A stretch of 64,000 nt of DNA. Origin: a virus. Taxonomy: Duplodnaviria; Heunggongvirae; Uroviricota; Caudoviricetes. The stretch covers positions 1 through 64,000 of the IMG/VR virus record IMGVR_UViG_3300036860_000563. One strand, given 5' to 3'. The notes under the pieces were generated by a model. The model was not told the DNA's origin, did not search any database, and saw only the letters and a program-made list of their open reading frames with translations. The position numbers and the translations under genes were made by a program. Of this stretch, positions 25,861 through 47,500 are shown piece after piece. Within the stretch, counting starts at the first letter, position 1, and every line of letters begins with the position of its first letter.

Positions 25861-25918
25861 ACATGTTCTTCTTCATCGGCTTTGTGGTGGGACTACCGGT
25901 CTTCTACGTGATCGCTCG

Positions 25919-27055
25919 ATGGATCATGAGACGATGATGGACCTGTCGGGTGCGAGTCTTCAGGTGCTGCTCACCGTACACACGAACCTGCGCAACGGCC
26001 TGAGTCGCGTCGCTGAGACGCTGGACGACGGCACGTTTCACGTCGTTGGAGCGCACGGTGAGGCGTCACCGGCCCAGTTTGGTCAGCTCATTCTCATCCT
26101 ACTCAGAGAGATCAACGCCGAGCTCTATCGGAGAACGGAAGCCCTCATGCCGACGCTGACGATCACCCGCGGCCTGCCCGCCTGCGGCAAGACGACCTGG
26201 GCTCGGGCCTGGGTGGCGCGTGACCCGACCCACCGGGCCAGGGTGAACCGGGACGACCTGCGCGCCATGGTCCACGACGGGGTGTGGCTCGGGCAGGACA
26301 CCGAGAAGCAGATCGTCGCCGGCCGCGACGCCACGATCCGGGCACTGCTACGGCGCGGGGTCGACGTGGTGTGCGACGACACCAACCTGCCGCAGCGAAC
26401 CGCCCGGGACCTGCGCCGCCTCGCCGTTGTGGCCGGTGCCGAGTTCCTGGTGGTTGACTTGAGCGACGTGCCGGTCGGCGAGTGCGTGCGCCGCGACGCC
26501 GTCCGTGACCGGCCGGTCGGCGAGTCGGTGATCCGGGACATGTGGAACCGGCACGTGCGTGGCCGGCCGCGTCCGCTGCCGCTCGCCGACGAGCCGCAGG
26601 ACGGGGGCGACCAGCCGGTGCCCTACGTTCCGCCGCCGGGCGCACCCAGCGCGGTGCTCGTCGACGTCGACGGCACAGTGGCGCTGATGGCCGCCCGGTC
26701 GCCGTACGACGAGACGCGCGTGCGCGAGGATCGTCCCAACCTGCCGGTGATCGCTGTGGTGAACGCACTCTACGACGCCGGCCACGCCGTGGTGTTCTGC
26801 TCGGGCCGCACCGAGGGCTGCCGCGTCGAGACCGAACGCTGGCTCTGTGAGCACGTGATGGCGCCGGTCACCGCTCTTCACATGCGCGCCGTTGGCGACA
26901 CTCGCAGAGACGCGATCGTGAAGCTGGAGCTGTTCGACCGCCACATCCGCGACGCGTACCGCGTGGTGTGCGTCCTCGACGACCGCGACCAGGTCGTAGA
27001 GATGTGGCGTGCGCTGGGCCTGACGGCGCTGCAGGTGGCACCCGGCGACTTCTAG
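25919..27055 (+). CDS. polynucleotide kinase-phosphatase (P-loop kinase + DxDxT phosphatase)
   Basis: TRGLPACGKTTWA (P-loop); VLVDVDGTVA (DxDGT); VCVLDDRDQVV (HAD motif IV). The catalytic core probably starts at ATG 26147. 25919..26146 is in the same frame with no stop, so the N-terminal limit is uncertain. Confidence 0.7.
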   Translation: MDHETMMDLSGASLQVLLTVHTNLRNGLSRVAETLDDGTFHVVGAHGEASPAQFGQLILILLREINAELYRRTEALMPTLTITRGLPACGKTTWARAWVARDPTHRARVNRDDLRAMVHDGVWLGQDTEKQIVAGRDATIRALLRRGVDVVCDDTNLPQRTARDLRRLAVVAGAEFLVVDLSDVPVGECVRRDAVRDRPVGESVIRDMWNRHVRGRPRPLPLADEPQDGGDQPVPYVPPPGAPSAVLVDVDGTVALMAARSPYDETRVREDRPNLPVIAVVNALYDAGHAVVFCSGRTEGCRVETERWLCEHVMAPVTALHMRAVGDTRRDAIVKLELFDRHIRDAYRVVCVLDDRDQVVEMWRALGLTALQVAPGDF

Positions 27056-29774: not shown

Positions 29775-30491
29775 GTGACGAGGAGAGTGACGCCCGTGAA
29801 CACGGTGCTGCTGAATGGGATCGTCGGGTCGACCGCGTACAACTTAGCGGACTCTGACTCGGACGTGGACAGACTCGGGATCTTCGCCGTTGACACGGTG
29901 GAGCTGCACGGGTTGAGGCGTCCGGTTGAGAGCATCGTTAGGACGCATCCGGATCGCACGCTTCACGAGGTGGGTAAGTGGTGTCGACTCGCACTTAACG
30001 GTAACCCCACCGTGATGGAGCTCGTGTGGTTACCGCGTGACCTGTACGAGGAGAGCACCGAGCTCGGCGAGGAACTCATCGCGTTACGTGGCGAGTTCTT
30101 GAGTGCGAGTCGCGTGCGAGACGCGTACCTGGGCTACGCCACCCAGCAGTTCTACAAGCTTCAGGCGCGCGGTGATGGGTCGTTCTCTGCCGACACGCGT
30201 AAGCGTATGGCGAAGCACGCACGACACCTACTTCGGCTGCTCGAGCAGGGCGTCGAGCTGCACCGGACCGGCACGTTGACGATCCGGCTCTCACCAGAAG
30301 TCGCCGCCGCGGTGCGCGAGTTCGGCGACCGGGTCGCGACCGGTGACGTGGAGGAAGCGCGTGTAAAGCTCTCACTGTTCGAGGAGGTGTTCCGCACGGT
30401 GTCGACGCCACTGCCCGCTGAGCCCAACGTCGAGCGCGTGGAGCGCTGGCTGCGTGAGGTGCGACGACAACACTACGCTTCTGAGAAGTAA
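29775..30491 (+). CDS. minimal pol-beta-superfamily nucleotidyltransferase
   Basis: LLNGIVGSTAYNLADSDSDVDRLGIF is the GS-x9-DxD NTase signature. Alternative GTG starts at 29787 and 29796. Confidence 0.55.
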   Translation: MTRRVTPVNTVLLNGIVGSTAYNLADSDSDVDRLGIFAVDTVELHGLRRPVESIVRTHPDRTLHEVGKWCRLALNGNPTVMELVWLPRDLYEESTELGEELIALRGEFLSASRVRDAYLGYATQQFYKLQARGDGSFSADTRKRMAKHARHLLRLLEQGVELHRTGTLTIRLSPEVAAAVREFGDRVATGDVEEARVKLSLFEEVFRTVSTPLPAEPNVERVERWLREVRRQHYASEK

Positions 30492-33231: not shown

Positions 33232-34740
33232 ATGATGGGGTTGGGTGAGAGCGCGTCACTCGAGCGCACGCTCGCGGACGCGCTCGACCCGCCCGAACTA
33301 CGCTGGCGACGCGACCCGGTGGCGTGGGCCATCGAGCGCGCGCGGGTGGAGTTGTGGTCCAAGCAGCGTGAGATTCTCGAGTCCGTCCGGGACAACGCCA
33401 ACACGGCGGTGCGCTCGGCTCACTCCTCGGGGAAGAGCTGGCTCGCGTCCCTACTCACGTGCTGGTGGGTGGACGTTCACCCGGCGGGTCAGGCGCGCGT
33501 CATCACGACGGCACCGACGTCGAAGCAGGTCGACGCCGTGCTCTGGTACGAGATCAACCGGATGCACGCGCGGCTTGGATTACGTGGTCGTACGAACATG
33601 TCGGAGTGGTTTCTCGGTGACCGGATGCTCGTCGCGCTGGGTCGTAAGCCGCCGGACCACGTGGAGGCCGCGTTTCAGGGTTTACACGCGCGGTTCTTGC
33701 TTGCGATCCTAGACGAGGCATATGGCATCCCAAAGCACCTGTGGGACGAGGCCTCGACGTTGGCCAGCAACGAACACGGACGGGTGCTCGCGATCGGTAA
33801 CCCGGACGGACCCGGTGAGTTTGAAGAGAACTGCAAGGCCGGCTCCGGCTGGAACGTCATTCACATTGGGTACGCGGACACACCTAACTTCACGGGTGAG
33901 CCGGTGTCACGTGAGCTCGGTGAGTTGCTCGTGTCGCGCCGTTGGGTGGACGAGCGCCGGCACAAGTGGGGCGCTCACTCCGCGCTCTTTCAATCGAAGG
34001 TGGAGGGTAACTTTCCCAGCGGTGGTGACCCGTACGCCGTCATGCAGCATGACTGGGTGACGCGGTGCCGGCACCTGGAGCTACCCAGTGGTGAGCCGGT
34101 CGAGGCGGGCATCGACGTCGCGGCCGGTGGTGATCGAACCGTCATCCGGGAGCGACGCGGTGCGCGCGCCGGTCGTGAGGAATCGTTCCAGGACAACGAC
34201 CCGATGCGCACGGTGGGTCGACTCGTCGAAAAGATCGTTGAGTGGGAGATCCAGCGTGTGAAGATCGACGTGACGGGTCTCGGCTGGGGCATCTACGGCC
34301 GAGTCCGTGAACTGTCGTCCCGACACAACCCAGCGGGAGAGACGACACACTCGGCGGAGGTGATCGACGTCAACTTCGGCGCCGGACCACCGCCCGGCTA
34401 CGCGAAGAAGTTCCTCAACATGCGCGCCTACCTGTGGTGGGAGGTCGGGCGTGAGCTGTCGCGCCTCGGTCTCTGGGACCTCACCGAGGTGGATGACGAC
34501 ACGGTTCACGAGCTCACAACGCCGCGCTATCAGATCCTCGACTCGTACGGAAAGATTAAGATTGAGTCGAAGGACCACGTCATCAAGCGGCTCGGTCTCT
34601 CACCGGACCGCGCGGAGGCGCTCATCCTGGCGTTCTACGACGCTCGGACGACGGCCCGGGTCATCGGGTGGGCACACATGGCGAGCGCCGACCTGCTCCG
34701 GGACACGTCGCCCAGCGACAACGTGGCGGCGTACGAGTGA
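33232..34740 (+). CDS. terminase large subunit
   Basis: Walker A AVRSAHSSGKSW. Walker B-like LLAILDEAYGIP. C-terminal nuclease-like region with acidic residues (GIDVAAGGDRTV, KIDVTGLGWG). Confidence 0.8.
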   Translation: MMGLGESASLERTLADALDPPELRWRRDPVAWAIERARVELWSKQREILESVRDNANTAVRSAHSSGKSWLASLLTCWWVDVHPAGQARVITTAPTSKQVDAVLWYEINRMHARLGLRGRTNMSEWFLGDRMLVALGRKPPDHVEAAFQGLHARFLLAILDEAYGIPKHLWDEASTLASNEHGRVLAIGNPDGPGEFEENCKAGSGWNVIHIGYADTPNFTGEPVSRELGELLVSRRWVDERRHKWGAHSALFQSKVEGNFPSGGDPYAVMQHDWVTRCRHLELPSGEPVEAGIDVAAGGDRTVIRERRGARAGREESFQDNDPMRTVGRLVEKIVEWEIQRVKIDVTGLGWGIYGRVRELSSRHNPAGETTHSAEVIDVNFGAGPPPGYAKKFLNMRAYLWWEVGRELSRLGLWDLTEVDDDTVHELTTPRYQILDSYGKIKIESKDHVIKRLGLSPDRAEALILAFYDARTTARVIGWAHMASADLLRDTSPSDNVAAYE

Positions 34741-34955
34741 GAACGCCGCGGCTCGTGTCGCCGTGGGAGCGTCACTGTGGTTGCCCAACGTGTCACGTCC
34801 GGCCCGGCGAGCGCTGTGTCACGACCCGGCCGGTGCACTTACCGCCCTGGCGTGAGAGTGATCTCCGGTACGTCGGCACGCCGACGACGGCTCACCAGGC
34901 GCGCTACCGCCTCTGGTGCCACCTGTGGGGGCGTGATCTCTGCGAGCTGGCCTAA
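34738..34955 (+). CDS. small Cys/His-rich protein
   Basis: HCGCPTCH...C. GTGA overlap with the terminase stop. Confidence 0.35.
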
Positions 34956-35006
34956 GAAGATCTTAAGACTCGGCGTTGTAGGGCATCATTAATCCTGATA
35001 TGATTA

Positions 35007-35098
35007 ACTAGCTGGGGGTCGGAGAGGGAGGAATACCCGAAGGGCTTCGCGCCCTCCAGGCGGAATCAAGCTGCCTGGACCGCCTCAGCTCCAAAAAT
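35007..35098 (+). ncRNA. candidate structured small RNA (three internal hairpins closed by a terminal 8-bp helix; 3' end ...GCUCCA then AAAAUU)
   Basis: Preceded by a TGATATGAT -10-like element at about 34996..35004. No ORF. Terminal helix AGCTGGGG/CCTCAGCT is followed by CCA. Internal hairpins CGAAG-GG-CTTCG and CCAGGCG...TGCCTGG. Confidence 0.3.
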
Positions 35099-35166
35099 TA
35101 GTCATTTCAAACGAGAAGAGGGTATCGGCTTTCCGAGGATCACACACGTAGAGAAAGACGAAGGTC

Positions 35167-35433
35167 ATGGCGACGATTGAGGAATCTTCGTGCCCTGCGT
35201 GCGGCGCCGCCGACACGCTTCAGCTCGACCAGGCACTTGAGACTCAGCCGATCGGCTCGTTCTCGCTCGCCGGTGCTCAGATGAAGTTCTCCGCCCGGTC
35301 CCGGCCGCGGCTGACTTGCTCGGTGTGCACACTCGACCTGCTCGGTGAGTATGACCAGGACGGCCGGCACGTCACGTTCGACTCTCCGAAGGAGGTCACG
35401 GATGATCGTTCGCGTGGTGTACGTCCGCTGTGA
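35167..35433 (+). CDS. zinc-ribbon protein
   Basis: CPAC...CSVC. GAAGG RBS. Confidence 0.45.
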   Translation: MATIEESSCPACGAADTLQLDQALETQPIGSFSLAGAQMKFSARSRPRLTCSVCTLDLLGEYDQDGRHVTFDSPKEVTDDRSRGVRPL

Positions 35434-35614
35434 TGGGTGCGGGCAACCGTGCGGCAATGCTGATGATCTACGGGTCACGGCGGCCGAGGCCCGACAACTC
35501 GCGCGCCGACGGGGTTGGGTTCGACAGCCCCGTGACGTTACCTCGCAGCGCCCGGCAGGAGCCGACTGGTGTCCGGCGTGTGCGTTAATGGTTGATTCGG
35601 GGCTCTTGGTGTGA
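35417..35614 (+). CDS. zinc-ribbon protein
   Basis: CDGCGQPC...CPAC. AAGGAGG RBS. ATGA overlap. Confidence 0.45.
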   Translation: MYVRCDGCGQPCGNADDLRVTAAEARQLARRRGWVRQPRDVTSQRPAGADWCPACALMVDSGLLV

Positions 35615-35666
35615 TCAACGTGCCTAGCGCGGCCGTGGACGACGTCGGTTGCACGTTTGCATCACA

Positions 35667-35677
35667 TGTGATATAGT
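35667..35677 (+). promoter_or_regulatory. extended -10-like element TGTGATATAGT about 60 nt upstream of the tRNA cluster
   Basis: The 12-mer ATGTGATATAGT recurs at 37438..37449. TGATAT(A/G)(A/G)T-type elements also occur at about 24654, 28367, 34996 and 37890. Confidence 0.35.
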
Positions 35678-35737
35678 TCTACTTAAGAACGAGAACAGAG
35701 GGCGCCGGGTGGACGACGGGTGTCGGTCGGCGTTCGA

Positions 35738-35807
35738 GGGATGATAGCTTAACGGGAAAAGCCCGGGTCGCTCCCGGCGTACGCTGGTTCGAGGCCAGCT
35801 CATCCCA
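35738..35807 (+). tRNA. tRNA-like element with perfect acceptor, D- and T-arms but a non-canonical anticodon arm (CGC at the anticodon position)
   Basis: Manual fold: acceptor GGGATGA/TCATCCC + A73; D-stem GCTT/AAGC; T-arm GCTGG-TTCGAGG-CCAGC; variable loop CGTAC. Anticodon arm is either CCGGG-TCGCT-CCCGG (5-nt loop) or a 4-bp stem with loop GTCGCTC. Confidence 0.45.
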
Positions 35808-35951
35808 CGAGAGACACTCGTCCTAGGAGTGAGCGTCACTCGAGGATGTGAGTGGCGGAGGAAGTGGAGCCGGTTGGACCGTCCGGCGCGCGACACACCG
35901 GTACGATCGCTTGGTCAGCGAGGGACTACCGGTACCCGATCTCACATCCGA

Positions 35952-36023
35952 ACCTACGTAGCTCAACGGACAGAGCACCGGTCTACGAAGCCGGTGGTGG
36001 AGGTTCGACTCCTCTCGTAGGTA
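35952..36023 (+). tRNA. tRNA-Arg (anticodon ACG)
   Basis: Manual fold: acceptor ACCTACG/CGTAGGT; D-stem GCTC/GAGC; anticodon stem CCGGT/GCCGG with loop CTACGAA; T-arm GGAGG-TTCGACT-CCTCT; discriminator A. Confidence 0.7.
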
Positions 36024-36039
36024 CGAAGATCTTGATAGG

Positions 36040-36213
36040 ATGACTTCTATGATGACGAACGAAGATCGCATGACGCTGGTGCTCAGCGTGATCTACGAGG
36101 GTCCGATCGACTCGGACGAGCAGGTGACGGACGCCGCCCGGAAGATCGTAGCTGCGTGGGAGAACGACGTCACGGAGCTCCAGACGGTGACGACGAACAG
36201 TGCGTCCCCGTGA
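36040..36213 (+). CDS. small hypothetical protein
   Basis: 57-aa ORF directly after tRNA-Arg. GTGA overlap with the next gene. Confidence 0.3.
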   Translation: MTSMMTNEDRMTLVLSVIYEGPIDSDEQVTDAARKIVAAWENDVTELQTVTTNSASP

Positions 36214-36893
36214 TCGAGCGCGCGTTCGGGCGCAGGCCACAGTTCGATGAGAGGTCTCGTCTCTTCAACGTACGATCGCTCGCCGACCAACTGACACCAC
36301 GCTCGTACACGTGGCGCGTGCCGGAGCACCTGGACCAGGGTAGCGAGGGCTCGTGTGTTGGCTTCGGCTTCGCGCACGAGCTGGCGGCCCAGCCCGTCTC
36401 CGTGAAGAACGTCACCACTCGCACCGCACATGAGATCTACTGGAGCGCGCAGCACGATGACCCGTGGCCGGGTGGTGCCTACCCCGGCGCGTCACCGCTC
36501 TACGAGGGCACGTCGGTGCTCGCCGGTGCGACGGCGCTGCGCGCACTCGGTCACTACCGTGAGTACCGCTGGGCGTTCTCCGAACCGGACGTCGCGGTCG
36601 TCGTGGGACGTCACGGACCGGTGGTGATCGGCGTCAACTGGTACACCGGCATGATGAGCACCGACGCGAGTGGCTTCATTAGGCCGACGGGCGTCATCGA
36701 GGGTGGTCACTGCACCCTACTTCACGGGATCAGCTTGCGCGGTGACCGGTACTCGGTGTGGCAGAGCTGGGGGTCGGACTGGGGCCTCGGTGGCCGGGCG
36801 TTCATCTGGCGTGAGGACCTCGCTCGTCTACTAGCCGAGGACGGTGACGCGTGCGTGCCGGTTCGAAAGAAGCTGCCGGTGGTGACGGTGTAG
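36210..36893 (+). CDS. papain-like (C1 family) cysteine peptidase
   Basis: QGSEGSCVGFGFAHEL (oxyanion Gln + catalytic Cys; compare QGxCGSCWAF), IEGGHCTLLHG (catalytic His region), SVWQSWGSDWGLGG (compare NSWGxxWG). Confidence 0.6.
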   Translation: MIERAFGRRPQFDERSRLFNVRSLADQLTPRSYTWRVPEHLDQGSEGSCVGFGFAHELAAQPVSVKNVTTRTAHEIYWSAQHDDPWPGGAYPGASPLYEGTSVLAGATALRALGHYREYRWAFSEPDVAVVVGRHGPVVIGVNWYTGMMSTDASGFIRPTGVIEGGHCTLLHGISLRGDRYSVWQSWGSDWGLGGRAFIWREDLARLLAEDGDACVPVRKKLPVVTV

Positions 36894-36961
36894 TTGGTGA
36901 TGACACCGCAGCTACGCACGTCACCCCACGCACCACGAGCCTGCCGTGTGTCGTCCACCGG

Positions 36962-37207
36962 GTGCACCGTCCTCGGCCGCGAAGCAACGACGTGCATCAC
37001 GTCTGGCCCCTCGCGGCCGGCGGTCCCGACGTGTTGGAAAATCGTGTGATCATCTGCCCGACGGGTCACCGCAACGTCCACCAGCTGCTGGACGCGTACC
37101 GGCGACTGCTCGGCACGCCTCCCTGGGTGGTGCGCCGGCGCTACTCTGCCGGTGAACGTCGTCTCGCTGCGCTCGGGTACGCGAGACTCACGCGTGGTTC
37201 ACTCTAG
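36962..37207 (+). CDS. HNH endonuclease
   Basis: DVHHVWPLAAGGPDVLENRVIICPTGHRNVH is the H-N-H motif. N-terminal boundary uncertain: the ORF opens at 36851 inside the peptidase gene. Confidence 0.55.
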   Translation: MHRPRPRSNDVHHVWPLAAGGPDVLENRVIICPTGHRNVHQLLDAYRRLLGTPPWVVRRRYSAGERRLAALGYARLTRGSL

Positions 37208-37488
37208 AGGTCATTGTCTCGAGAGAAAAGGTGAGGGAAGAGTTTTTGATGCCCCGCTGGATGCTCAAGTTGTGCTTCACTGGTCGGCGTGTTAAAGGAG
37301 AGAGGATGGTCCGATGGACGCTAAGATCATTATAATGCTGGTGTGCTTTGGACTCGCCGCTCTGTTCATCAGTGTCGCGTTCTGGGGCAATGATGACGAC
37401 AGCTAACTCTTCGTTGGTGGTTGCACGACGTACAGTAATGTGATATAGTCGACGTAGAAGTGATCGAGTGACGAGGGAGTGATCAAGG

Positions 37489-37830
37489 ATGGTCAAGAAC
37501 CAGTTCGGGGACGGTCTCGTCTACGTAGGTGATGAGGATGAGTTCTCCGTCTACGAGATGTTCATGCGAGACCGGGTCGTCATGCGCGTCTCGGTGCGTA
37601 ACACAGACCTGGCGATCCGTGTGAACCGCCCGGACACCGGTGCCGGCTTCGAGCTGAAGACACACGCGCACACGGCGCTACACTCGTACCAGGTTGGCCC
37701 GGAGCCGGTCGACGTTGAGGTGCGGGAGCACGTCGACTCCGCTCACTTGCAGTATGTGATCTACGGTAAGCTACCGTGGCTACTCGCCGACCTGTACGTG
37801 CCGATGACGACGGCTGAGTACCCTGAGTAA
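37489..37830 (+). CDS. hypothetical protein
   Basis: Good RBS. Preceded by the ATGTGATATAGT element. Confidence 0.5.
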   Translation: MVKNQFGDGLVYVGDEDEFSVYEMFMRDRVVMRVSVRNTDLAIRVNRPDTGAGFELKTHAHTALHSYQVGPEPVDVEVREHVDSAHLQYVIYGKLPWLLADLYVPMTTAEYPE

Positions 37831-37852
37831 GATCTCACACACGAGGTGTGAA

Positions 37853-37886
37853 GTCACAGCACCGTGTTGTTGCACGGTGTTGTGAC
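37853..37886 (+). terminator. 14-bp near-perfect hairpin GTCACAGCACCGTG-TTGTTG-CACGGTGTTGTGAC after gene 37489..37830
   Basis: Seen directly. Immediately followed by a TGATATAAT element. Confidence 0.4.
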
Positions 37887-37889
37887 TTA

Positions 37890-37898
37890 TGATATAAT
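37890..37898 (+). promoter_or_regulatory. extended -10 promoter element TGATATAAT
   Basis: TGnTATAAT consensus, upstream of gene 37936. Confidence 0.4.
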
Positions 37899-37935
37899 AG
37901 AACTAGAAGAGATCGAGAGATAAGGAGTGATCAAC

Positions 37936-38514
37936 ATGTGGGTTATGACGTCATTTGGTATCTTGATGCCGGGTCTTCGACCACCACACACCGTGCCCGC
38001 GGGCGATGAGCGCTTACTTCAGGTTCGAGCGCGTCGACGTCGAGATCTTGAGATCTTGCGCGTTGAGTACATGCCGACTCTCGGTGAGATCATCTCGCTG
38101 CCACACACCGACTATGAGTACCGGGCGTACTGCACGCACGAGCAGTGGGCCGCGGCACTCGCTAAGATCGCGCTGGACATCGACTACGTGAAGTTCAAGG
38201 AGACGACCGAGTCGAAGTACCACGATCGTAAGCTTCACGACATGTACCTGGCGCTGTGGAGTAAGATCTTTTCGTCACTGTCCACCCAGCGGCACCAGGA
38301 TGAGTACTGGCGACCAATCACTCGTCGGCGTCAACCGGTCCTAAGCGACCTGGTGGGCACCGTCACGCGCGTAGGTGATGACGGTGACCTAGACGGTCGC
38401 TACGCGGAGATCACGGTGATCCGTGACGCACACGGTCGGATCGATCACACGTGGTGTGAACACGGCGACTCACGAAACGCTAAGCGTCGTTGTCAGCGTC
38501 GCAACGCGCGGTGA
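37936..38514 (+). CDS. hypothetical protein
   Basis: AAGGAG RBS. Confidence 0.5.
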   Translation: MWVMTSFGILMPGLRPPHTVPAGDERLLQVRARRRRDLEILRVEYMPTLGEIISLPHTDYEYRAYCTHEQWAAALAKIALDIDYVKFKETTESKYHDRKLHDMYLALWSKIFSSLSTQRHQDEYWRPITRRRQPVLSDLVGTVTRVGDDGDLDGRYAEITVIRDAHGRIDHTWCEHGDSRNAKRRCQRRNAR

Positions 38515-38562
38515 GACGACAGCATTGGTACGATCTAGCTCTGAGAGACGGAGGTGAGAAGA

Positions 38563-38784
38563 GTGAACCGTGAGAAGGCGCTCAACCTCGTGCGCACGAT
38601 CATCTCAACGCATCGCAACGCGCTCGGTGCCGGTGATGAGCGCGCCGCCGAGGCGCTGCGCAACGCCGAGCAGGACATTCGTGGTCTCGTCGAAGAGATC
38701 TTTGACGAGTGTGAGTTTAAGTTTGACCGACACGTCGATGACGCCATCGACGTTGCCAACGTCGATGAAGGTGAGAAGGCATGA
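38563..38784 (+). CDS. hypothetical small acidic protein
   Basis: GGAGGTGAG RBS. GTG start. Confidence 0.4.
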   Translation: MNREKALNLVRTIISTHRNALGAGDERAAEALRNAEQDIRGLVEEIFDECEFKFDRHVDDAIDVANVDEGEKA

Positions 38785-38805
38785 GCTATGACATCTAGAT
38801 GAGGA

Positions 38806-39000
38806 GTGGTCAGAGTGAACAACGACAAGGAGCTCTACGAGGCACTCGGTGCGATCGCCGACGCGCTCGTACCGGTGTACCGGGGTGAGTTCGCGATACT
38901 CGTCCGGAAGCTCGCGCACGGATCGTACGGTGACGCAGACCGGTACCATGAGATCGTCACCATTGTGCGCCGCTGGCTACGCGACGCCGGTTACGAGTGA
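38806..39000 (+). CDS. hypothetical protein
   Basis: GAGGAG RBS. Confidence 0.4.
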   Translation: MVRVNNDKELYEALGAIADALVPVYRGEFAILVRKLAHGSYGDADRYHEIVTIVRRWLRDAGYE

Positions 39001-39009
39001 TCGGAGGAG

Positions 39010-39198
39010 ATGAGAGTGACGCGAAAGAAGGCTAAGCGACTGCGCTCGGGGCAGCACGTCAGCGTGGCGGGACGAACACTCACGGTAGCGATCACCAAGC
39101 TCGTGCACGACGAGAAACTAGGTGAGCTGGTCGAGGTTCGCTTCATCGACGGCACCGTCATCAGGCGAGCACCTCACGCGCTGCTGGATGTGATCTAG
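39010..39198 (+). CDS. hypothetical basic protein
   Basis: GGAGGAG RBS. Confidence 0.4.
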   Translation: MRVTRKKAKRLRSGQHVSVAGRTLTVAITKLVHDEKLGELVEVRFIDGTVIRRAPHALLDVI

Positions 39199-39462
39199 GT
39201 GAATGAGACCAACGAGACCCACGAGACCCACGAGGTTGACGAGATCGACGAGATCGAGCGCGTCGTGCGCGCACACCCAGCGACCATCATCTTTCAGGAC
39301 CACCTCATCGAGGAACTGCGTAAGATCGATCATCGGTGCGTGCGGACGTACGACGGGTACGGGCGGTGTGTCCGCGTGACGCACACCGACGACGTCCGGT
39401 GCGTGACGGACGACGGGACCCCCTGGCCCGCGTGGGCTGCGAGTATGACGACGAAGGTGTGA
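39199..39462 (+). CDS. hypothetical protein with N-terminal NETNETHETHEVDEIDEIE repeat and 4 Cys
   Basis: 9-bp tandem repeats at 39202..39258. Confidence 0.4.
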   Translation: MNETNETHETHEVDEIDEIERVVRAHPATIIFQDHLIEELRKIDHRCVRTYDGYGRCVRVTHTDDVRCVTDDGTPWPAWAASMTTKV

Positions 39463-39639
39463 TGTGAGAATCAGTGAGGTCTGGGCCGCGATGAAGGCGC
39501 GCGGACGTGTGCCCACCGCGAAGGACGTGGGCTCACGTAACAAGGGTGTTAGGCGCGTGTGGCGTGACAGGCTACGAGTAGACGCTCTGTGCCGGCGTGA
39601 CCAGGTTCTCCCGAGTCGAGCACTCCGGAGGTCACAACC

Positions 39640-40128
39640 GTGACGTTGACCGTCACGTGGGTTGCCGCGTGGATCACGTTTAGCATAACTGTTATCATCG
39701 CCGCGTGGCGAGTCGACCAACTACTAGCCAACTACGTACGCGCGCACACGCCGAGCGCCGATGAACGTGACGTCGCGATCACGGAGCGACGTAACGCGGC
39801 TGAACTCACGCGACTTACACTCGCCGAGACGGCGGAGTTGCGACGCGCTGAGCTGCTCGTGAAGATCGCCGAGGCGCGCGACGTCGAGGCAGGAGTGAGC
39901 GCACTCGCCGCGGACCGGTTAGCCGGTCAACGTGAGATCCTCACGGCGTGGGTAGCGGCGGAGCGTGAGCTCGCGGTGGAGACGGTTCGTAAGAATCATG
40001 ACGCTCGACTGCGCACGGAGGATGTGCTCGACAAGTATGAGCGCTACATGCAGACGACACATAATCGTGGTGCATCATACATGACATTCGATGACTTCAC
40101 CAACACGTTGAGTGACTATGAGGTGTAA
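39640..40128 (+). CDS. membrane-anchored coiled-coil protein
   Basis: N-terminal TM helix WVAAWITFSITVIIAAW. GTGA overlap. Confidence 0.45.
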   Translation: MTLTVTWVAAWITFSITVIIAAWRVDQLLANYVRAHTPSADERDVAITERRNAAELTRLTLAETAELRRAELLVKIAEARDVEAGVSALAADRLAGQREILTAWVAAERELAVETVRKNHDARLRTEDVLDKYERYMQTTHNRGASYMTFDDFTNTLSDYEV

Positions 40129-40130
40129 CG

Positions 40131-40694
40131 GTGACTACGATAGATCGGTGCGTGCGCTACCTGACGAGTGGCACCGACTGGGTGAGTGAACTTCGCGGCC
40201 TGCAGATGTTTGAGCTACTGCGCAGGCAAAATACGATGGCCCGACTGTCGACCGGTGCGAAGCACGGTTACGTTCACATCGGCAACTTGATCGATCGTGC
40301 ACCGTGCTCGGACGAACTGTGGTTCATACTCATGCCCGGAAGCTCAGACGTCGTGGACGTGATCGAGTGGCGTGACGCGCAGGACAGCATGCCTACGATC
40401 GTAGACGTACACGCCGACGTCCTACGTCTCGTGCACAACCCGAGTGACGACATGATTCGACATGGTCACAGCGTCACGGCGGACGCGTGGGAGTGGTGGT
40501 CCGACCCAGAGCGGCAGGAAACACTCACTCGTTCACTACGCGCCGCCGACGTCATCACAACGTCGTACGCCGAGCTGGTGCTGCCACTGCGTGCGTACAA
40601 CGAGAACGTAGTGCACCTGCCGGACGTGCAACCCGACTCGGCGAGTGAGTTCCTCGTCGGGTGGAGCGTCGCACTGGGCCTACTGACGCGGTGA
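40131..40694 (+). CDS. hypothetical protein
   Basis: GAGGTG RBS. Confidence 0.45.
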   Translation: MTTIDRCVRYLTSGTDWVSELRGLQMFELLRRQNTMARLSTGAKHGYVHIGNLIDRAPCSDELWFILMPGSSDVVDVIEWRDAQDSMPTIVDVHADVLRLVHNPSDDMIRHGHSVTADAWEWWSDPERQETLTRSLRAADVITTSYAELVLPLRAYNENVVHLPDVQPDSASEFLVGWSVALGLLTR

Positions 40695-41176
40695 GCGTGG
40701 TCATTCGCCGTGGAATCACTCGCACCGTCCTGCTGACCAGACGGTACGCGGTGAAGGTGCCGAGCCTACGTCGTCACGGCGATGGGTTGACCGGGCTGCT
40801 GTGGTCCGTCTCCCGCGGGATCCTGGCGAACCAGAGTGAGGCCGAGTGGTGGCGGAACGGTCAACCCAGCGTGCGGCGATACCTGTGTCCGGTGCTGCAC
40901 TCGTGGCTCGGGGGTGTCGTCAACGTCTACCCACGGTGCGCGTCATACGTCGACACCGGGCACGGTCACTGGAACGACGTAGCTCACCGATGGGAGCGAC
41001 CCGCGGAGCTGGCCGAGGCCGAGTTCCTGCCGGGTGACCTAAAGCCGGACAACCTGGGTTACCTGGCCGGGAAGTTGGTGGTTCTCGACTACGACATGAA
41101 CTGGAACGGCTGCCCACACGATCGCTCAGGTGTGCCGAACCGGTTCGTAGCCGACGACCTCGGTGAGAGTGCCTGA
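40690..41176 (+). CDS. minimal protein-kinase-like protein
   Basis: RRYAVKVP (VAIK-like Lys), HGDLKPDNLGYL (HRDLKPxN-type catalytic loop), VVLDYD (DFG-like). Confidence 0.5.
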
Positions 41177-41214
41177 AGTGATCGAGTGATCATCAACCTG
41201 GTACCGTAGCTCTC

Positions 41215-41589
41215 GTGCCACTCTGGCTACTCATCGTGCTGGCGTCACTCGCCACCTACCGGGTGACGCGGTTCATCGCCACGGATGAGTTTCCGCTCGT
41301 GGCGGAGCCACGTGACGCGTTCGTCAACCGCTGGGCGACCAAACCCAACCCACAGACGCGGGTGGAGAAGCGCGTGGCGCTGGGTGGACAACGCACCAAC
41401 CTGCTCATGCGCTCCGTCGCGTACCTCTGGGAGTGTGAGTGGTGCCTCGGTGTCTGGGTGAGTGGTGGCGTGACGTACGGGACGTGGCGACTGACGACGC
41501 TCGGCGCCCAGCCGGTGTGGATCGGCGCGCTGGTGTGGCTCACCGCCGCGGCCGTGACCGGCATGATAGCCCAGCGTGAGCCGCACTAG
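41215..41589 (+). CDS. membrane protein
   Basis: Several hydrophobic segments. CEWC motif. Confidence 0.4.
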   Translation: MPLWLLIVLASLATYRVTRFIATDEFPLVAEPRDAFVNRWATKPNPQTRVEKRVALGGQRTNLLMRSVAYLWECEWCLGVWVSGGVTYGTWRLTTLGAQPVWIGALVWLTAAAVTGMIAQREPH

Positions 41590-41608
41590 CCGACTGTGAG
41601 GAGCGCCC

Positions 41609-41818
41609 GTGGACCCAGCTGACCTGGTGAACCGGTTCACGTACCACCCACCACAGCCCGAGCAGATTAAGATCTACGAGGCGATCCGGCGCTCGACGCT
41701 GGCACTCGCACTTGAGATCAACCAGTTCGTGCCGGACTCACGCGAGAAGAGTCTCGCGCTGACTCACCTCGAAGATGTCGTCTACTGCGCCAACGCGGCG
41801 GTGGCGCGTCACGCATAG
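41609..41818 (+). CDS. hypothetical protein
   Basis: GAGGAG RBS. GTG start. Confidence 0.4.
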   Translation: MDPADLVNRFTYHPPQPEQIKIYEAIRRSTLALALEINQFVPDSREKSLALTHLEDVVYCANAAVARHA

Positions 41819-41829
41819 GGCGGTGCCCG

Positions 41830-44541
41830 GTGGCAGATCGACGACGTGATGTCGCTCACCTCATCGTGCCACACGGTGAGCTTTCACACGGTGCGAACGG
41901 TCACACACTTATCACAGCCACGGTCGGTAGTAGCGTCTCACCGATCAACGCGGCCGCCCAGCGGTTGGTTCCGATCGACACGTACCGTGCCCAGTACACC
42001 CAGCCGTGGCAGGACGAGGCCTGGGAATTCTACGCGTCGCTTGGAGAACTTAACCAGGGCGTTGAGTGGTTTGGTGAGGCGGTCTCACGTGTGCGACTAC
42101 TCGCCGCCGAGGTCACCCCCGGCGGGGATGAACCGAGGGTGCTGGACACCGGCCCGGCCGTCGACCTCGTCCAGCGGCTCTGCGGTGGCACGGACGGGCA
42201 GTCTCAGCTGCTCCGATCACTGGGTGTTCAGCTCTCGATACCGGGAGAGTGTTACTTCGTCGGCCGCGACGTGGGGCAGCTGAGCTCACTCGACACCACG
42301 TCGTTGGACGCCGAGCCCGACGAGGACGGTCGTGTCTGGACCGTTCAGCCGACGAACACGGTGCGGCAATCACAGCGTGGCGTCTGGCGGACGCTAGGTC
42401 GTCGCAATCGTACCGATACCCGGCGCGGCTGGGACCTACAGGTCGATGAGGCGGTGTGGGTACCACTGCCCGCCGAGACCCTCATCACTCGCGTCTGGGA
42501 CCGTGATGAGCGCTCTCCGTGGCTGGCCGCGTCACCCGCGCGGGCGGCGCTACCCATCATGCGTGAGATCGACATGTACAACCGGTACGTCATCGCGACG
42601 CTCATCTCACGTGTGGCGTCCAATGGCATCTTGCTGATCCCGGACGAGGTGACGCTACCCGTCAACCCCAACTACGAGACGGCCGCCGACCCGTTCATGG
42701 CCGAGCTGATCGACGTCATGCGCGCCGCGATCAAGAACCCCGGTTCACCGGCGTCCGCGGCACCGGTGCCACTCCGAGTGCGCTCCGAGTACATCGAACG
42801 GTTCCGACACCTCACGTTCGCGACGCCGTTTGACGACAAGATCTTTCAGGCACGCGCCGACGCGATCAAGCGACTCGCCACGACGCTCAACCTGCCGACC
42901 GAGGTTCTAACCGGTCTGGGTTCCGTAAATCATTGGTGCGGAGATGACTCCACGCAAGCATACGTGCGTGATCGTGGCTGGGTGAGCCAGCGAGAACTTA
43001 ACGTCGGTGACGTGATTCTTACCCTCAACCACGAGACCGGGCTGTCCGAGTGGCAACCCGTGCTTGACATCTACCGAGCTGACGTTACCGACGAACAGAT
43101 GCTGGCACTTACTAGCCGGTTTCACTCATCGGTGTCGACGATGGGTCACCGCTGGCCCGTCGTCACGTCGACGGGCTACGACTGGCGCACATCACAGACG
43201 CTCGAGGCGAGTGATCGACTCGTGCTCGCCGTTCCTCACACCGACCTACCGACGACGATGAAGTACAGCGATGAGTTCGTCGAGCTCGTCGCGTGGATGA
43301 CGACGGATGGCTCGATTCGTCGGTGGCAACCTAAGTATAAAGGATCACTCCAGGCCGCCGTCCACCAGTCACATCGTGCTCATCCTGGGCGAGTGGCGGA
43401 GATCAGGCGAGTGCTCACCGCACTGTACGGACCGGCGAGCGTGCACCCGCACGGGTGTGAACGAGCCACCGAGCCTCGCTGGCGTGAGCACCGGTACGAG
43501 TCGTACGGCATGACGACGTGGGTGCTCAACCGAGTCGCTGCCGAGTCGCTCACCGAGGTGATGAATGTTCCTGAGAAGATCGTTACGCGTGACTTTATCT
43601 ACTCACTGACGCGGGCGCAGCTCGACCTGTTCATCAACTCGTACGCGGCCGGTGATGGACGTCAGGGGCCTACCGGCAGCGTGATAAGCTCGCAGCGAGA
43701 CGCCCGCCGACTCGACGCACTCGAGCTCGCGGCGACGCTCGCCGGTTACGTGACGTCGCGTGGGGTCGGTACCGACGGTGGTTTTAAGACCGGGCCGATC
43801 ACCACTCAACGCGTTGTGCACCCGGACAACCAGAACGTACGTGGTGGGCGGTGTAGCGTGGGCGTTGGGAGCGTGACGTCGTACACGGGTGTTGTGTGGT
43901 GTCCCACGACGAAGAACGGTACGTGGTTCGCTCAGCACAACGGTAAGACGTTCTTCACCGGCAACAGCGCGTGGGCACTCAACGAGGACGGCATCAAGAT
44001 TCACATCTCACCCAAGGTTGAGATCATGACGCGGTGCCTCACCGTCGGCTACCTGCACCCGATGCTGCGAGCGCTGGGTGAGCCGACGACCACCGCGGCG
44101 GGTAACCGGATCATCATGTGGTACGACACGTCCGAGCTCACCCAGCGACCCGACCGGTCCCCGCTGGCCGTCCAGCTTCGGGAGATGCTGGTCATCAACG
44201 ACACCGCCGCACGGCGTGAGTCGGGTTTTGACGAGGCGGACGCTCCGACGGATGATGAGCTCGAGAAGATGATCCTCGAGAAGCTCGCCGTTAACCCACA
44301 GACGGCGACGGCTGCGCTGAAGGAGCTCACCGGGCTCAACATCGCCGAGCCGCCGCCCACGGTCCCGGTGGTCGGCACCCCGTCACAGCCCAGCGGCCCA
44401 GCTGGCGACGCGGGTGACGGAACCTCCGTGGAGTCGGCACCTCCGGTGTCGACCACCGGACCACCTAAGACGCGCGACGCACCGCCGCCGGCACCCGACG
44501 AGGGAGCCAACGCGGTCACGACCGGTAGCCGTGGTAACTAG
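41830..44541 (+). CDS. portal protein interrupted by an intein
   Basis: Lies immediately upstream of the MuF-like gene. Portal-like N-terminal region (YTQPWQDEAWEFYASLGEL). Hint + LAGLIDADG insertion. Pro/Gly/Ala-rich C-terminal tail. Confidence 0.6.
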   Translation: MADRRRDVAHLIVPHGELSHGANGHTLITATVGSSVSPINAAAQRLVPIDTYRAQYTQPWQDEAWEFYASLGELNQGVEWFGEAVSRVRLLAAEVTPGGDEPRVLDTGPAVDLVQRLCGGTDGQSQLLRSLGVQLSIPGECYFVGRDVGQLSSLDTTSLDAEPDEDGRVWTVQPTNTVRQSQRGVWRTLGRRNRTDTRRGWDLQVDEAVWVPLPAETLITRVWDRDERSPWLAASPARAALPIMREIDMYNRYVIATLISRVASNGILLIPDEVTLPVNPNYETAADPFMAELIDVMRAAIKNPGSPASAAPVPLRVRSEYIERFRHLTFATPFDDKIFQARADAIKRLATTLNLPTEVLTGLGSVNHWCGDDSTQAYVRDRGWVSQRELNVGDVILTLNHETGLSEWQPVLDIYRADVTDEQMLALTSRFHSSVSTMGHRWPVVTSTGYDWRTSQTLEASDRLVLAVPHTDLPTTMKYSDEFVELVAWMTTDGSIRRWQPKYKGSLQAAVHQSHRAHPGRVAEIRRVLTALYGPASVHPHGCERATEPRWREHRYESYGMTTWVLNRVAAESLTEVMNVPEKIVTRDFIYSLTRAQLDLFINSYAAGDGRQGPTGSVISSQRDARRLDALELAATLAGYVTSRGVGTDGGFKTGPITTQRVVHPDNQNVRGGRCSVGVGSVTSYTGVVWCPTTKNGTWFAQHNGKTFFTGNSAWALNEDGIKIHISPKVEIMTRCLTVGYLHPMLRALGEPTTTAAGNRIIMWYDTSELTQRPDRSPLAVQLREMLVINDTAARRESGFDEADAPTDDELEKMILEKLAVNPQTATAALKELTGLNIAEPPPTVPVVGTPSQPSGPAGDAGDGTSVESAPPVSTTGPPKTRDAPPPAPDEGANAVTTGSRGN
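42937..43965 (+). mobile_element. intein (Hint domain + LAGLIDADG homing endonuclease) inside the portal gene
   Basis: N-terminal Cys block CGDDSTQAYV...NVGDVILTLNHETG. LAGLIDADG-like motifs LVAWMTTDGSI and LFINSYAAGDGRQG. C-terminal block VVWCPTTKNGTWFAQHNGKTFFTGN|S. The C-terminal junction is ambiguous: HN at 43936..43941 is followed by Gly. Confidence 0.6.
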
Positions 44542-44543
44542 CC

Positions 44544-47500
44544 GTGGTACGCGTCCCGAGGTGGTCAGAGGATGAACTGGAGCGCCGCTCCGGCCAGCTA
44601 GCGGCGCTCATCCGGCGTGCCTGGCGCGCCGTCGCGCGCGTCGTCGCCGGCGACATCGGCCGGCGGAGACCGATGAGCGACGTCACACCTGACCTCATGC
44701 ACCACAATCGCGTCGCGTTCGCGTGGCACGTCGAGCTCGAGGATCAGGTTCTCGCGTACGTCGCGCGAACGTACGAGGACGCCGCGGCCGATGTGCTCAT
44801 CCCACTGGGTGATGCGGTCGCAAACCTAGCGCCACTGGGACCGGAACCCGCGCACCGACACCTCGCACTCGCGCGCAACCGACTGCGCGACGTCGCCGAT
44901 GACGTCTGGGTGATCGTGCGAGAGCAGCTCGTCCTGGGCAGCCAGGCGGGTGAGTCGACCCAGCAGCTCGCGCTCCGCGTTCAGAACGTCACGGGCATCT
45001 CCGACGCCCGGGCGTTCACGATCGCGCGGACGGAGGTGCACGCGGCCCACGAGGCCGGCGCGCACGACCAGGCGCTCTGGGTCGACCCAGACGGTAAGAA
45101 GGAGTGGCTCGCCACCGCGGACGACCGCACGCGTGAGTCACACCGCGTGGCAAGTGGGCAGACCGTCGCGCTGACGAAGTCGTTCAGCGTGGGAGAGGGC
45201 ACACTTCGCTACCCGGGCGACCCACTGGGCGACCCCGGTGAGACGATCAACTGCCGGTGCAGCACCGCGTTTCACATATCACTTGATATGATAGGCCCTG
45301 TGAGTGATCAGAGTGATCAGAGTGACCAGAGTGATCAGAGTGACGTTCACACCGTGACGGCCGGCGCGTGGAAGCCGCAGCAGCACCCGCGCGGGGCGGA
45401 CGGTAAGTTCATCGAGGCCGGCGCGATCAAGAACTTCTTGAGCGCGAAGAAGCCAACGTTTGATCACGCAGCGTCCGCTATAGCCGAGCTCAACCAGCAG
45501 AAGTGGAGCAAGCTTACCGACGAGCAGCGTCAACGCTTTGCGAGTGTCGTCGCCGCCTGGCCCGACGACAACATACTCAAAAAGAAGATCACTAAGCTCT
45601 CGCAGGTACCGGAGCCGGCGACGTCAAGCTCGCCACCAGGTGACTTCTCTCATCTTAAGAAGGTCGGCGCACAGCGGGGCTCCAACCCCGGTGGGATCTT
45701 CGAGGGGCCGGACGGGCAGCGCTACTACGTTAAGAAGGCGAAGACGCCGCAGCACGCGGCCAACGAGCGAGCGGCCGCGCAGCTGTACGAACTCGCCGGG
45801 ATCGACGTGCCTCAAGTCACACAGGGTGAGGGCGCACCGGGGCTCGGTGCTGGGTTGCAGACGCGCACGAAGCTCGTACCAGGCGCGCAGACCGATCTTA
45901 AGAAGAAGCTGCACGACCCGGCCTACGTAGCCGTGCTGCGCGAGGGTTTCGTCGTGGACGCGTGGCTCGCCAACTGGGACGTGGCGGGTCTGACGTACGA
46001 CAACGTCGTCACCGATGAGTACGGTGACCCGTGGCGGATCGACGTCGGGGGCGCGCTACTCTACCGTGCGATGGGCGCGCCGAAGGGTGTGGCGTTCGGT
46101 GATGAGGTGACCGAGCTCGACACGCTTCGTGATCCGGCGAAGAACCCGCAGGCGGCGTCCATCTTCGCGGGTATGACCGACGCCGAGCTGCGCGAGTCCG
46201 CGAAGCGCGTCGTTTCGATCACACCAGAGCAGATCGACCAAGTGATCACACAGGCGGGTTTACCGGCGTCCGTGGCGGAGACGCTCAAGAAGCGCCGCGA
46301 GTACATCATGAAGATGTACCCACCGATCTCCTGGGTCTCACCGGACGAGGTGCCCGCGGCGACCGAGCCTCACACGCCGGTCCCGGCGAAGCTGAAGAAG
46401 CTCACACCCTCCACGAAGAAGGTTGTACCTGCGACAATCTACAAGTCGCACGACGTGGGTGACGTCGTCGCGATCGACGAGCACAGCTCGATGCGGATCC
46501 GCTGGACGAGCGCGGGTTACACGCTCGACGTCAGCGATGACGATGGGGCCACCTGGACCCTAAAGACGAAGCTCACGAAGAGTCAGGCGTACCAGTCACT
46601 CAAGAGTAACACGATGTGGCGAGAACCGACTCTCGACGTCGTCGCTGGTCCGGAGGTAACGCCACCGGCGCCAACACCGGTGAAACCGCCTGTGACGACG
46701 AAGTTGGTGCCGAAACCAGAGTCGAAACCAGAGTCGAAACCGAAACCGAAACCGAAACCAGAGCAGCTCAGCGATGGCACCAACTACGAATCGGATGACG
46801 TACCGAACTGGCAGGACGTCATCGATCCAGATGTTCTTAACGCGCTGTCACCGGGCACGGTCATCGCCGTCTCGACCGACGGCAACTACCGACTCGTGAA
46901 GGCGCCGGGCGGTAACCTCATACTTGACATGCAAAAGCTTAGTGACGCTGGGTGGCTGCCGTGGGGAGGTATCTACACTCCTAACTATGATGACGGTGAC
47001 GAGCTCTTCGCCGAAGAACTCTCGCACTACGCGTCCGCGTGGGTGAAACCTAACTCACCACTAGGCCAACAGCTGTTAGATAAGAGTGACAAATTACCGA
47101 CGTTACCCGCACCGGTGGAAGACTTTCATTACTGGGTTGAGAAGTTGGTGCCACCATCACCCCCACCGGTTGAGCTCGCCGGTGTGTCCGGCACCAACAT
47201 CACACTTCACGAGTACAAGGACCTAGTTAACGTCGCGCTGAGCTCACCGGGCACGACCGTCGCGAAGACACCGGTGGGTGATGTACTACGGTCATCGAGT
47301 AGCGGGCACCTCATCTGGTACCACGCCGGTGACGAGCCCACCTCCGAGCAGTTGAACAAGCTCAAAGCGATTCAGTTGATGCGCAGTCCTACCGCTGGCT
47401 GGGTGATCGACGCTCAACTACTCGCGCAATCGTCTCACCCAAGTGTAGTTGACCTGGACTATGAACCGGATGACACACCCAACTGGGAAGAGATTCAGCA

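Follow-up and report, generated by a model that had tools for sequence, protein, structure and literature searches.

The open reading frame (ORF) at positions 36210-36893 of the viral DNA analysed here very probably encodes an active cysteine hydrolase of the C1 (papain) fold, as predicted from its sequence and from a structural model. Chance cannot account for the similarity of its product to C1 peptidases. The gene belongs, as a new and divergent member, to a phage family that is already annotated. The family is rare in sequenced phage isolates and large in metagenomes. Judging from the domain fusions and gene neighbourhoods of the homologues, we tentatively favour the view that the peptidase is an auxiliary cell-wall hydrolase.

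The peptidase gene and its catalytic residues

The window, by which we mean the whole stretch of 64,000 nucleotides that was analysed, appears to belong to a novel actinobacteriophage. No sequenced phage has a terminase large subunit more than 42% identical to the one encoded here, and for the major capsid protein the identity to sequenced phages does not exceed 30%, the best matches being actinophages. The peptidase gene shares its strand with the terminase and head genes and is situated in an island between the terminase gene and the portal region. The features of this part of the window are as follows.

33232-34740, plus strand: terminase large subunit
34741-41214, plus strand: variable island between the terminase large subunit and the 124-residue ORF with the portal
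35738-35808, plus strand: tRNA-Ala (CGC), upstream of the peptidase gene
35952-36024, plus strand: tRNA-Arg (ACG), ending 186 nt ahead of the peptidase start codon
36040-36213, plus strand: 57-residue ORF whose stop overlaps the peptidase start
36210-36893, plus strand: coding sequence of the C1-like (papain-fold) cysteine peptidase, 227 residues, GTG start
36851-37207, plus strand: HNH endonuclease ORF (PF01844, 3.1e-5, above the cut-off)
41215-44541, plus strand: conserved 124-residue ORF plus portal
53739-55469: major capsid protein

The GTG codon at 36210 gives the best gene model for the peptidase, and this model is the same as the JGI gene call of 227 residues (P0001). The start codon overlaps the stop codon of the upstream 57-residue ORF by 4 nt (GTGA), and the two genes are probably translationally coupled. 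A longer peptidase ORF starting at 36156 was ruled out by this overlap and by the GC3 over the 54 nt at 36156-36209, which is 0.94 in the frame of the upstream ORF and 0.50 in the peptidase frame. At the other end, the HNH ORF overlaps the 3' end of the peptidase gene by 43 nt. The original prediction had placed the gene after tRNA genes and ahead of an HNH gene, and this arrangement is indeed found, with tRNA-Ala and tRNA-Arg on one side and the PF01844 ORF on the other. The GC content of the gene (66.7%) is in keeping with the genome; that of the window is 62.8%. A scan of 34.6-38.0 kb of the window revealed no promoter or terminator.

The three motifs on which the original prediction was built are all present in the ORF: QGSEGSCVGF is encoded at 36336-36365, GGHCTLLHG at 36702-36728, and WQSWGSDWG at 36759-36785. 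They contain the following residues.

36336-36338, plus strand: Gln43, equivalent to Gln19 of papain (oxyanion hole), six residues ahead of the catalytic Cys; invariant
36354-36356, plus strand: Cys49, predicted catalytic nucleophile (EGSCVGF); invariant
36708-36710, plus strand: His167, predicted catalytic base (GGH); invariant
36762-36770, plus strand: Gln185-Ser186-Trp187, equivalent by alignment to Asn175-Ser-Trp177 of papain

Gln43, Cys49, His167, and Trp187 of the window peptidase follow the order of papain, and these four residues and Ser186 are invariant in an alignment of 43 family sequences. Cys49 would act as the nucleophile and His167 as the base, while Gln43 would form the oxyanion hole. 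Gln185 would stand in for the Asn residue that orients the catalytic His. At this position, 238 of the 249 members with a locatable Asn-Ser-Trp motif have Asn and 10 have Gln, the window protein being one of the latter. The change from Asn to Gln is conservative, and the N175Q mutant of papain retains most of its activity.

Three features usual for C1A peptidases, namely a signal peptide, an inhibitory prodomain, and conserved disulfides, are all missing from the window peptidase. Neither a signal peptide nor a hydrophobic N-terminus nor a transmembrane segment was found in it. Since only about 28 residues precede the start of the mature domain, it has no real prodomain. An N-terminal segment beginning FDERSR is conserved. 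It contains three Cys residues (49, 168, and 215), of which Cys49 alone is invariant, and thus no conserved disulfide cysteines are present. Because a secretion signal, a prodomain, and disulfide cysteines are all lacking, the peptidase should fold and accumulate in the cytoplasm.

Membership in family C1 and distribution of the phage peptidases

Sequence, profile, and predicted fold all bear out the original assignment to the C1 (papain) family. A phmmer search of the PDB with the window peptidase matched cathepsin B at 2.7e-5. In this alignment, the strong stretch covers the His and Ser-Trp region, and the Gln-Cys motif is placed by a second, weak one (3.5 bits). The profile of the 43-sequence family alignment matched C1 structures, cathepsin B-like peptidases, at 7e-12, and the phage orthologous group PHROG 16701, annotated 'peptidase', scores 3.9e-48 against the window peptidase. 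The window peptidase alone scores 15.0 bits against Pfam PF00112, under the gathering cut-off of 20.7; many homologues exceed this cut-off, for example P0157 with 37.4 bits and P0256 with 36.5 bits. NCBIfam gave no match for the window peptidase.

The AlphaFold2 model of the peptidase has a pLDDT of 92.8 and a pTM of 0.90. When it was compared with the PDB using Foldseek, all of the top 50 matches were C1A peptidases, led by xylellain (2.2e-8, TM 0.73) and followed by cathepsins B, L, and F. The fold thus agrees with the original prediction, which a fold of another clan would have refuted, and neither CHAP nor NlpC/P60 structures are among these 50 matches. In BFVD, some of the fold matches are multi-domain proteins, with names such as N-acetylmuramidase, peptidoglycan-binding-like, lysozyme, and endolysin.

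The positions and spacing of the Gln, Cys, His, and Ser-Trp residues are equal in the phage protein, in xylellain of Xylella fastidiosa (PDB 3OIS), and in C1A peptidases of the cathepsin B type. Unlike these enzymes, the phage protein is without a signal peptide, an I29-type prodomain, and conserved disulfide cysteines, has Val instead of Trp after the catalytic Cys and Gln in place of Asn, and is encoded by a phage-borne gene. Another virus-encoded C1 peptidase is V-CATH of baculoviruses, which breaks down the host at the end of infection, and a viral cathepsin is among the BFVD fold matches of the window peptidase. However, V-CATH belongs to a eukaryotic virus, is secreted as a proenzyme that carries a prodomain, and degrades the proteins of host tissue, and the evidence for common descent with it goes no further than family C1. 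The nearest relatives in isolates are the actinophage genes of PHROG 16701, which belong to the same family as the window protein with 29-45% identity by tblastn (GMA2 Orf38, Lilbeanie gp40, Mufasa8 gp26, Muntaha gp82, Sycamore gp66, and gp94 of Mycobacterium phage Barnyard).

Homologues, all less than 60% identical to the window protein, occur in 41 of 50,697 sequenced phage records. Their carriers are mostly phages of Gordonia, Streptomyces, Mycobacterium, and Arthrobacter, joined by jumbo phages of Xanthomonas and Stenotrophomonas, and in GenBank they are named 'peptidase', 'cysteine protease', 'hydrolase', or 'putative lysin'. No near-identical DNA was found among sequenced phages by megablast, and protein identity to isolates is at most 45%. 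Metagenomes yielded 2,376 clusters at 90% identity in a word-seeded search, and an exhaustive profile search with a limit of E ≤ 1e-30 gave about 1,480 clusters at 50% identity. From IMG/VR, 238 loci were recovered using two peptide patterns only; their GC contents range from 34 to 73%, and their proteins are still 39-57% identical to the window peptidase. The original remark that C1 peptidases are rare in phages is thus correct for sequenced isolates and incorrect for metagenomes. A search of 185,579 species-representative genomes gave only about 45 loci, mostly of Actinomycetota. Around ten Streptomyces chromosomes have a homologue of 256 residues without a signal peptide (L109, L111, L112, L115, L117, L118, L121, and L125); since the flanking genes differ by species, these homologues are not obviously in a shared prophage. 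We found no experimental study of any family member in the literature.

Domain fusions and lysis genes

Domain fusions were sought among the best 150 of the 1,480 representative clusters at 50% identity, and the following were found.

P0147, P0150 (plus G5), P0256: GH25 and C1, in three clusters at 50% identity
P0210: VanY and C1
P0124: C1 and PG_binding_1
P0172: C1 and Amidase_2 (1.4e-7)
P0157, P0268: SNase with C1
P0137, P0216, P0268: C1 followed by lipoprotein-signal-like segments
P0127: C1 and DUF1353, a domain of no known function
P0207: Ada zinc-binding partner, a weak match

Except for DUF1353 and the weak Ada match, the identifiable fusion partners are of envelope or secreted type. The C1 domains fused to GH25, G5, VanY, PG_binding_1, and Amidase_2 are 43-48% identical to the window protein over the whole length. 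For the C1 domains of all multi-domain homologues the range is 43-52%, comparable to the stand-alone homologues, and their catalytic motifs are intact. The fusion proteins are metagenomic gene calls, and the window peptidase is single-domain. A continuous ORF of 597 residues at IMG/VR locus L089 is equal in length to P0150. The envelope-type partners are the strongest indication of the role of the C1 domain and suggest that it acts on the cell wall.

In both P0147 and P0150 (the L089 ORF), GH25 and C1 are separated by a Pro-rich linker and by a predicted transmembrane helix, next to which a strongly basic stretch lies towards C1. This intervening helix is a point against the wall reading.

Insertions of intein size are present in 6 of the 150 best representative clusters, and the two that were scanned with Pfam both contain an intein or LAGLIDADG domain. 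In P0122, P0144, P0162, and P0212, the insertion lies directly ahead of the catalytic Cys, which is the +1 residue (...EGA|C...intein...HN|CVxF), and two different intein types occupy this first site. The insertion in P0133 and P0163 lies at a second site, ahead of the conserved (S)YEGTS motif. Inteins are, as far as we know, uncommon in proteins other than those of replication and packaging.

The gene neighbourhoods in several isolates also point to the cell wall. The lysis cassette contains the homologue in Gordonia phages Lilbeanie, Aleemily, and GMA2 and in Arthrobacter phage Mufasa8, where it has lysin A on one side and the holin or lysin B on the other. GMA2 Orf38, which carries cd02619, was published in 2015 as a fourth putative lysin (Dyson et al., PMC4524720). 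The copy in the window differs from these Gordonia and Arthrobacter copies in that it is not in a lysis cassette. We favour the auxiliary wall hydrolase because the fusions are specific and occur in several independent clusters of the same clade, and because four phage lineages have copies in lysis cassettes. The original prediction took a C1 fold to exclude a lysin role; this argument fails, since close C1 homologues are fused to peptidoglycan hydrolase or binding modules and are placed in lysis cassettes.

In Mufasa8, an M23 peptidase is the sole other lysin. Barnyard and Sycamore carry the peptidase gene, and their endolysins are amidase-only. The idea that the C1 gene complements a lysin A without a peptidase was rejected; it fits Barnyard and Sycamore but not Mufasa8, which has the M23 peptidase, nor the Gordonia phages, which have a C39 peptidase. 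Because the C1-like domain co-occurs with a C39-type lysin A in the Gordonia cassettes, it is not a substitute for C39. A C-terminal tag of about 25 residues, NLLGxTDxELAEF...RQLG, is common to the split lysin A proteins of these Gordonia phages, which are a C39 peptidase and a glycosidase or amidase. Their genes are located as follows.

L003, 3293-4605: split lysin A with the shared tag
L004, 3196-4574: split lysin A with the shared tag
L005, 3170-4590: split lysin A with the shared tag

The C1-like protein in the same cassettes is without this tag, which counts against a wall-hydrolase role.

In metagenomes, most peptidase copies have unrelated neighbours. Pfam scans of 300 neighbour proteins from 65 non-redundant IMG/VR loci identified eight peptidoglycan hydrolases (three Amidase_2, one Amidase_3, two GH25, one NlpC/P60, and one Rv2525c-like glycosidase), one holin, and three C92 permuted papain-like amidases. 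The unrelated families include terminase subunits, RtcB, Tpt1, Ro60/TROVE, ClpS, and Acb2/Tad1. These raw counts suggest some enrichment of lysis genes near the peptidase. Small membrane proteins lie beside the peptidase at 23 of the 65 loci on the upstream side and at 16 of 65 on the downstream side, a difference that is not significant. No conserved partner gene emerged when five genes per side at 80 loci were clustered by BLAST, and the flanking small ORFs and the HNH gene of the window have no counterparts beside other peptidase copies. HNH genes also adjoin the peptidase in Indlovu and Muntaha, and they have no homology to the HNH gene of the window.

Taking the fold, catalytic residues, family membership, fusions, and gene contexts as given, we infer a substrate, a timing, and a holin dependence for the auxiliary wall hydrolase. 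The peptidase would accumulate in the cytoplasm and reach the peptidoglycan after a holin opens the membrane. There it would act as an endolysin-type peptidase or amidase, cutting stem-peptide or cross-link bonds alongside the main lysin. Neither a holin nor another peptidoglycan hydrolase was recognised by Pfam, or by tblastn with known lysins, in the window, which covers 64 kb of a 94-kb contig.

Such a role has parallels in endolysins, whose CHAP, NlpC/P60, and C39-like N5 domains are Cys-His hydrolases of the papain superfamily that act on peptidoglycan. The C39-like N5 domain is the cysteine-peptidase catalytic domain of mycobacteriophage Lysin A (PMC3314691). Beside GH25, Amidase_2, and VanY, the C1-like domain takes the same modular place as these cysteine-peptidase domains of endolysins. 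On the other hand, it differs from CHAP, NlpC/P60, and C39-like domains in family and topology, and its muralytic role is putative. A 2025 survey of viral lytic proteins was found to make no mention of C1-type lysins, and in a 2023 classification of papain-like enzymes we did not find C1 listed with the families that degrade peptidoglycan. Should the peptidase indeed be a wall hydrolase, C1-type domains would be an unlisted class of endolysin catalytic module, widespread over phages of very different hosts, and they could serve enzybiotic design. We know of no C1-family enzyme that is established as a peptidoglycan hydrolase.

tRNA arrays, head genes, and the variable island

The second recurrent setting of the gene is the tRNA array. 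At least five tRNA genes are located within about 6 kb of the peptidase in 11 of the 65 non-redundant IMG/VR loci, and in 8 loci of this set a tRNA gene is at most 250 nt from the peptidase gene. The density of tRNA genes peaks beside the peptidase, with counts of 36 and 29 in the adjacent 1-kb bins versus 8-17 at 4-6 kb. The arrays around the peptidase reach 34 tRNA genes, and the peptidase is often the largest ORF in them. Since their GC contents span 41-62%, the loci with tRNA arrays are not one lineage. Those from IMG/VR include L019, L021, L024, L031, L045, L054, L059, L060, L083, and L084. Streptomyces phages Sycamore (L146) and Muntaha (L001) have the gene in this arrangement too, as does the window at 35738-36893. 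As a control, at least five tRNA genes were found at none of 20 polA-centred loci, a small and biased set consisting entirely of close relatives. The tRNA association is about as frequent as the lysin association, and the lysin reading does not predict it. In Muntaha, Sycamore, and the Mycobacterium cluster H phages, the gene lies near terminase, tRNA, and HNH genes and far from the annotated endolysin; the setting in Muntaha and Sycamore is like that in the window.

These contexts bring in the main rival explanation, in which the peptidase is a cytoplasmic protease carried as cargo of tRNA and RNA-repair islands and acting on host or phage proteins; its task might be host takeover, counter-defence, or the recycling of host protein in aid of late translation. 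We regard this explanation as possible but rather unlikely. The window peptidase has no signal peptide, transmembrane segment, or wall-binding domain, as would be expected of a cytoplasmic enzyme, and the tRNA arrays described above are consistent with the rival. So are the neighbours at metagenomic loci, which include RtcB, Tpt1, Ro60/TROVE, ClpS, and Acb2/Tad1-like proteins, and the presence in the window itself of a polynucleotide kinase-phosphatase (PNKP), an RNA ligase, RlaP, TROVE, and an Acb2/Tad1-like protein. For the roles suggested in the original prediction, anti-defence proteolysis or host-protein processing, the tRNA-array setting and a few RNA-repair or ClpS neighbours are the sole hints, and indirect ones. 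Conservation of the family, at 45-55% identity, across phages of 34-73% GC would fit a universal intracellular target; however, the stem peptide of peptidoglycan is likewise conserved across these hosts. A fusion partner of clear cytoplasmic function is absent among the best 150 representatives, the peptidase has no conserved partner gene, and PADLOC matched neither the window protein nor a homologue from a Streptomyces chromosome. Furthermore, tRNA islands are hypervariable hotspots with homing endonucleases, and the co-location may reflect mobility.

A functional placement in the tRNA arrays would make the peptidase part of a translation-maintenance or counter-defence toolkit, for example by destroying a host factor directed against tRNAs or translation, or by recycling host protein for late synthesis; we consider this distinctly unlikely. 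If the link to tRNA islands is functional, the family would indicate that phages use a protease in one step of their control over host translation or defence. Whichever role applies, the family is large and strongly conserved, and phages of Gordonia, Arthrobacter, Mycobacterium, and Streptomyces are tractable carriers.

Relatives of the window phage bear on both the wall-hydrolase and the cytoplasmic readings. They were found by a portal-based search; a pattern search based on the terminase gave none. Their portals are 42-61% identical to that of the window, apart from the distant locus L183 with only 24%, and in the five relatives that also have the terminase gene this is 56-65% identical. 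The relatives keep the gene order of terminase, variable island, conserved 124-residue ORF, portal, and MuF protein, and the island measures 0.4-8.4 kb in the four that are covered from terminase to portal. The region 35167-37207 of the window, comprising two small ORFs, the two tRNA genes, the 57-residue ORF, the peptidase gene, and the HNH gene, has no match in the examined parts of the related contigs. This makes the peptidase gene an accessory one, situated in a hypervariable hotspot, and since no copy was found in the terminase-portal region of the relatives, it is probably dispensable there. This accessory status weakens the claim of an essential lysin and makes a non-functional explanation of the tRNA association possible.

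Several of the relatives L172, L175, L178-L180, and L182 have tRNA arrays ahead of the portal, with up to 26 genes; the window has only two tRNA genes there.

The location of the gene between terminase and portal, near the gene of a MuF-ADP-ribosyltransferase polyprotein, raises the further possibility that the enzyme is virion-associated or ejected, being packaged with the head and opening the wall at entry or acting as an effector. The homologue at L008 is located between head-decoration and capsid genes, and terminase genes are among the neighbours scanned in metagenomic loci, both in line with such a role. Nevertheless, we consider it highly improbable: no copy was found in the same head module of related contigs, the best 150 representatives show no fusion to tail, tape-measure, or MuF domains, and most copies lie outside structural modules. 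A capsid maturation (prohead) protease or a scaffold-processing enzyme is suggested solely by the position upstream of the portal and capsid genes, and we regard this as extremely improbable. Known prohead proteases have other folds, a head maturation protease PHROG is already matched by a neighbouring protein of 1146 residues, a capsid maturation protease is annotated separately in Sycamore, and related contigs with the same head genes yielded no copy of the peptidase.

Two large proteins are encoded between the portal and major capsid genes of the window, and a set of RNA-repair and counter-defence genes is spread over it. The protein directly after the portal (44544-50042, plus strand; 1832 residues) begins with a Phage_Mu_F domain at the N-terminus, carries an ADP-ribosyltransferase exotoxin domain at the C-terminus, and is probably a head-packaged polyvalent effector. 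The next one, ahead of the major capsid gene (50039-53479, plus strand; 1146 residues), is an odd combination: the N-terminal part matches RNA-ligase PHROGs, and the C-terminal part those of portals or head maturation proteases. The RNA-repair and counter-defence set consists of a Ro60-like TROVE+VWA protein, a polynucleotide kinase-phosphatase, RlaP, T4-type RNA ligase and 2'-5' RNA ligase-like proteins, and an Acb2/Tad1 hairpin-domain protein, and its ORFs include those at 12113-13768 (minus strand), 25772-27055 (plus strand), and 29775-30491 (plus strand).
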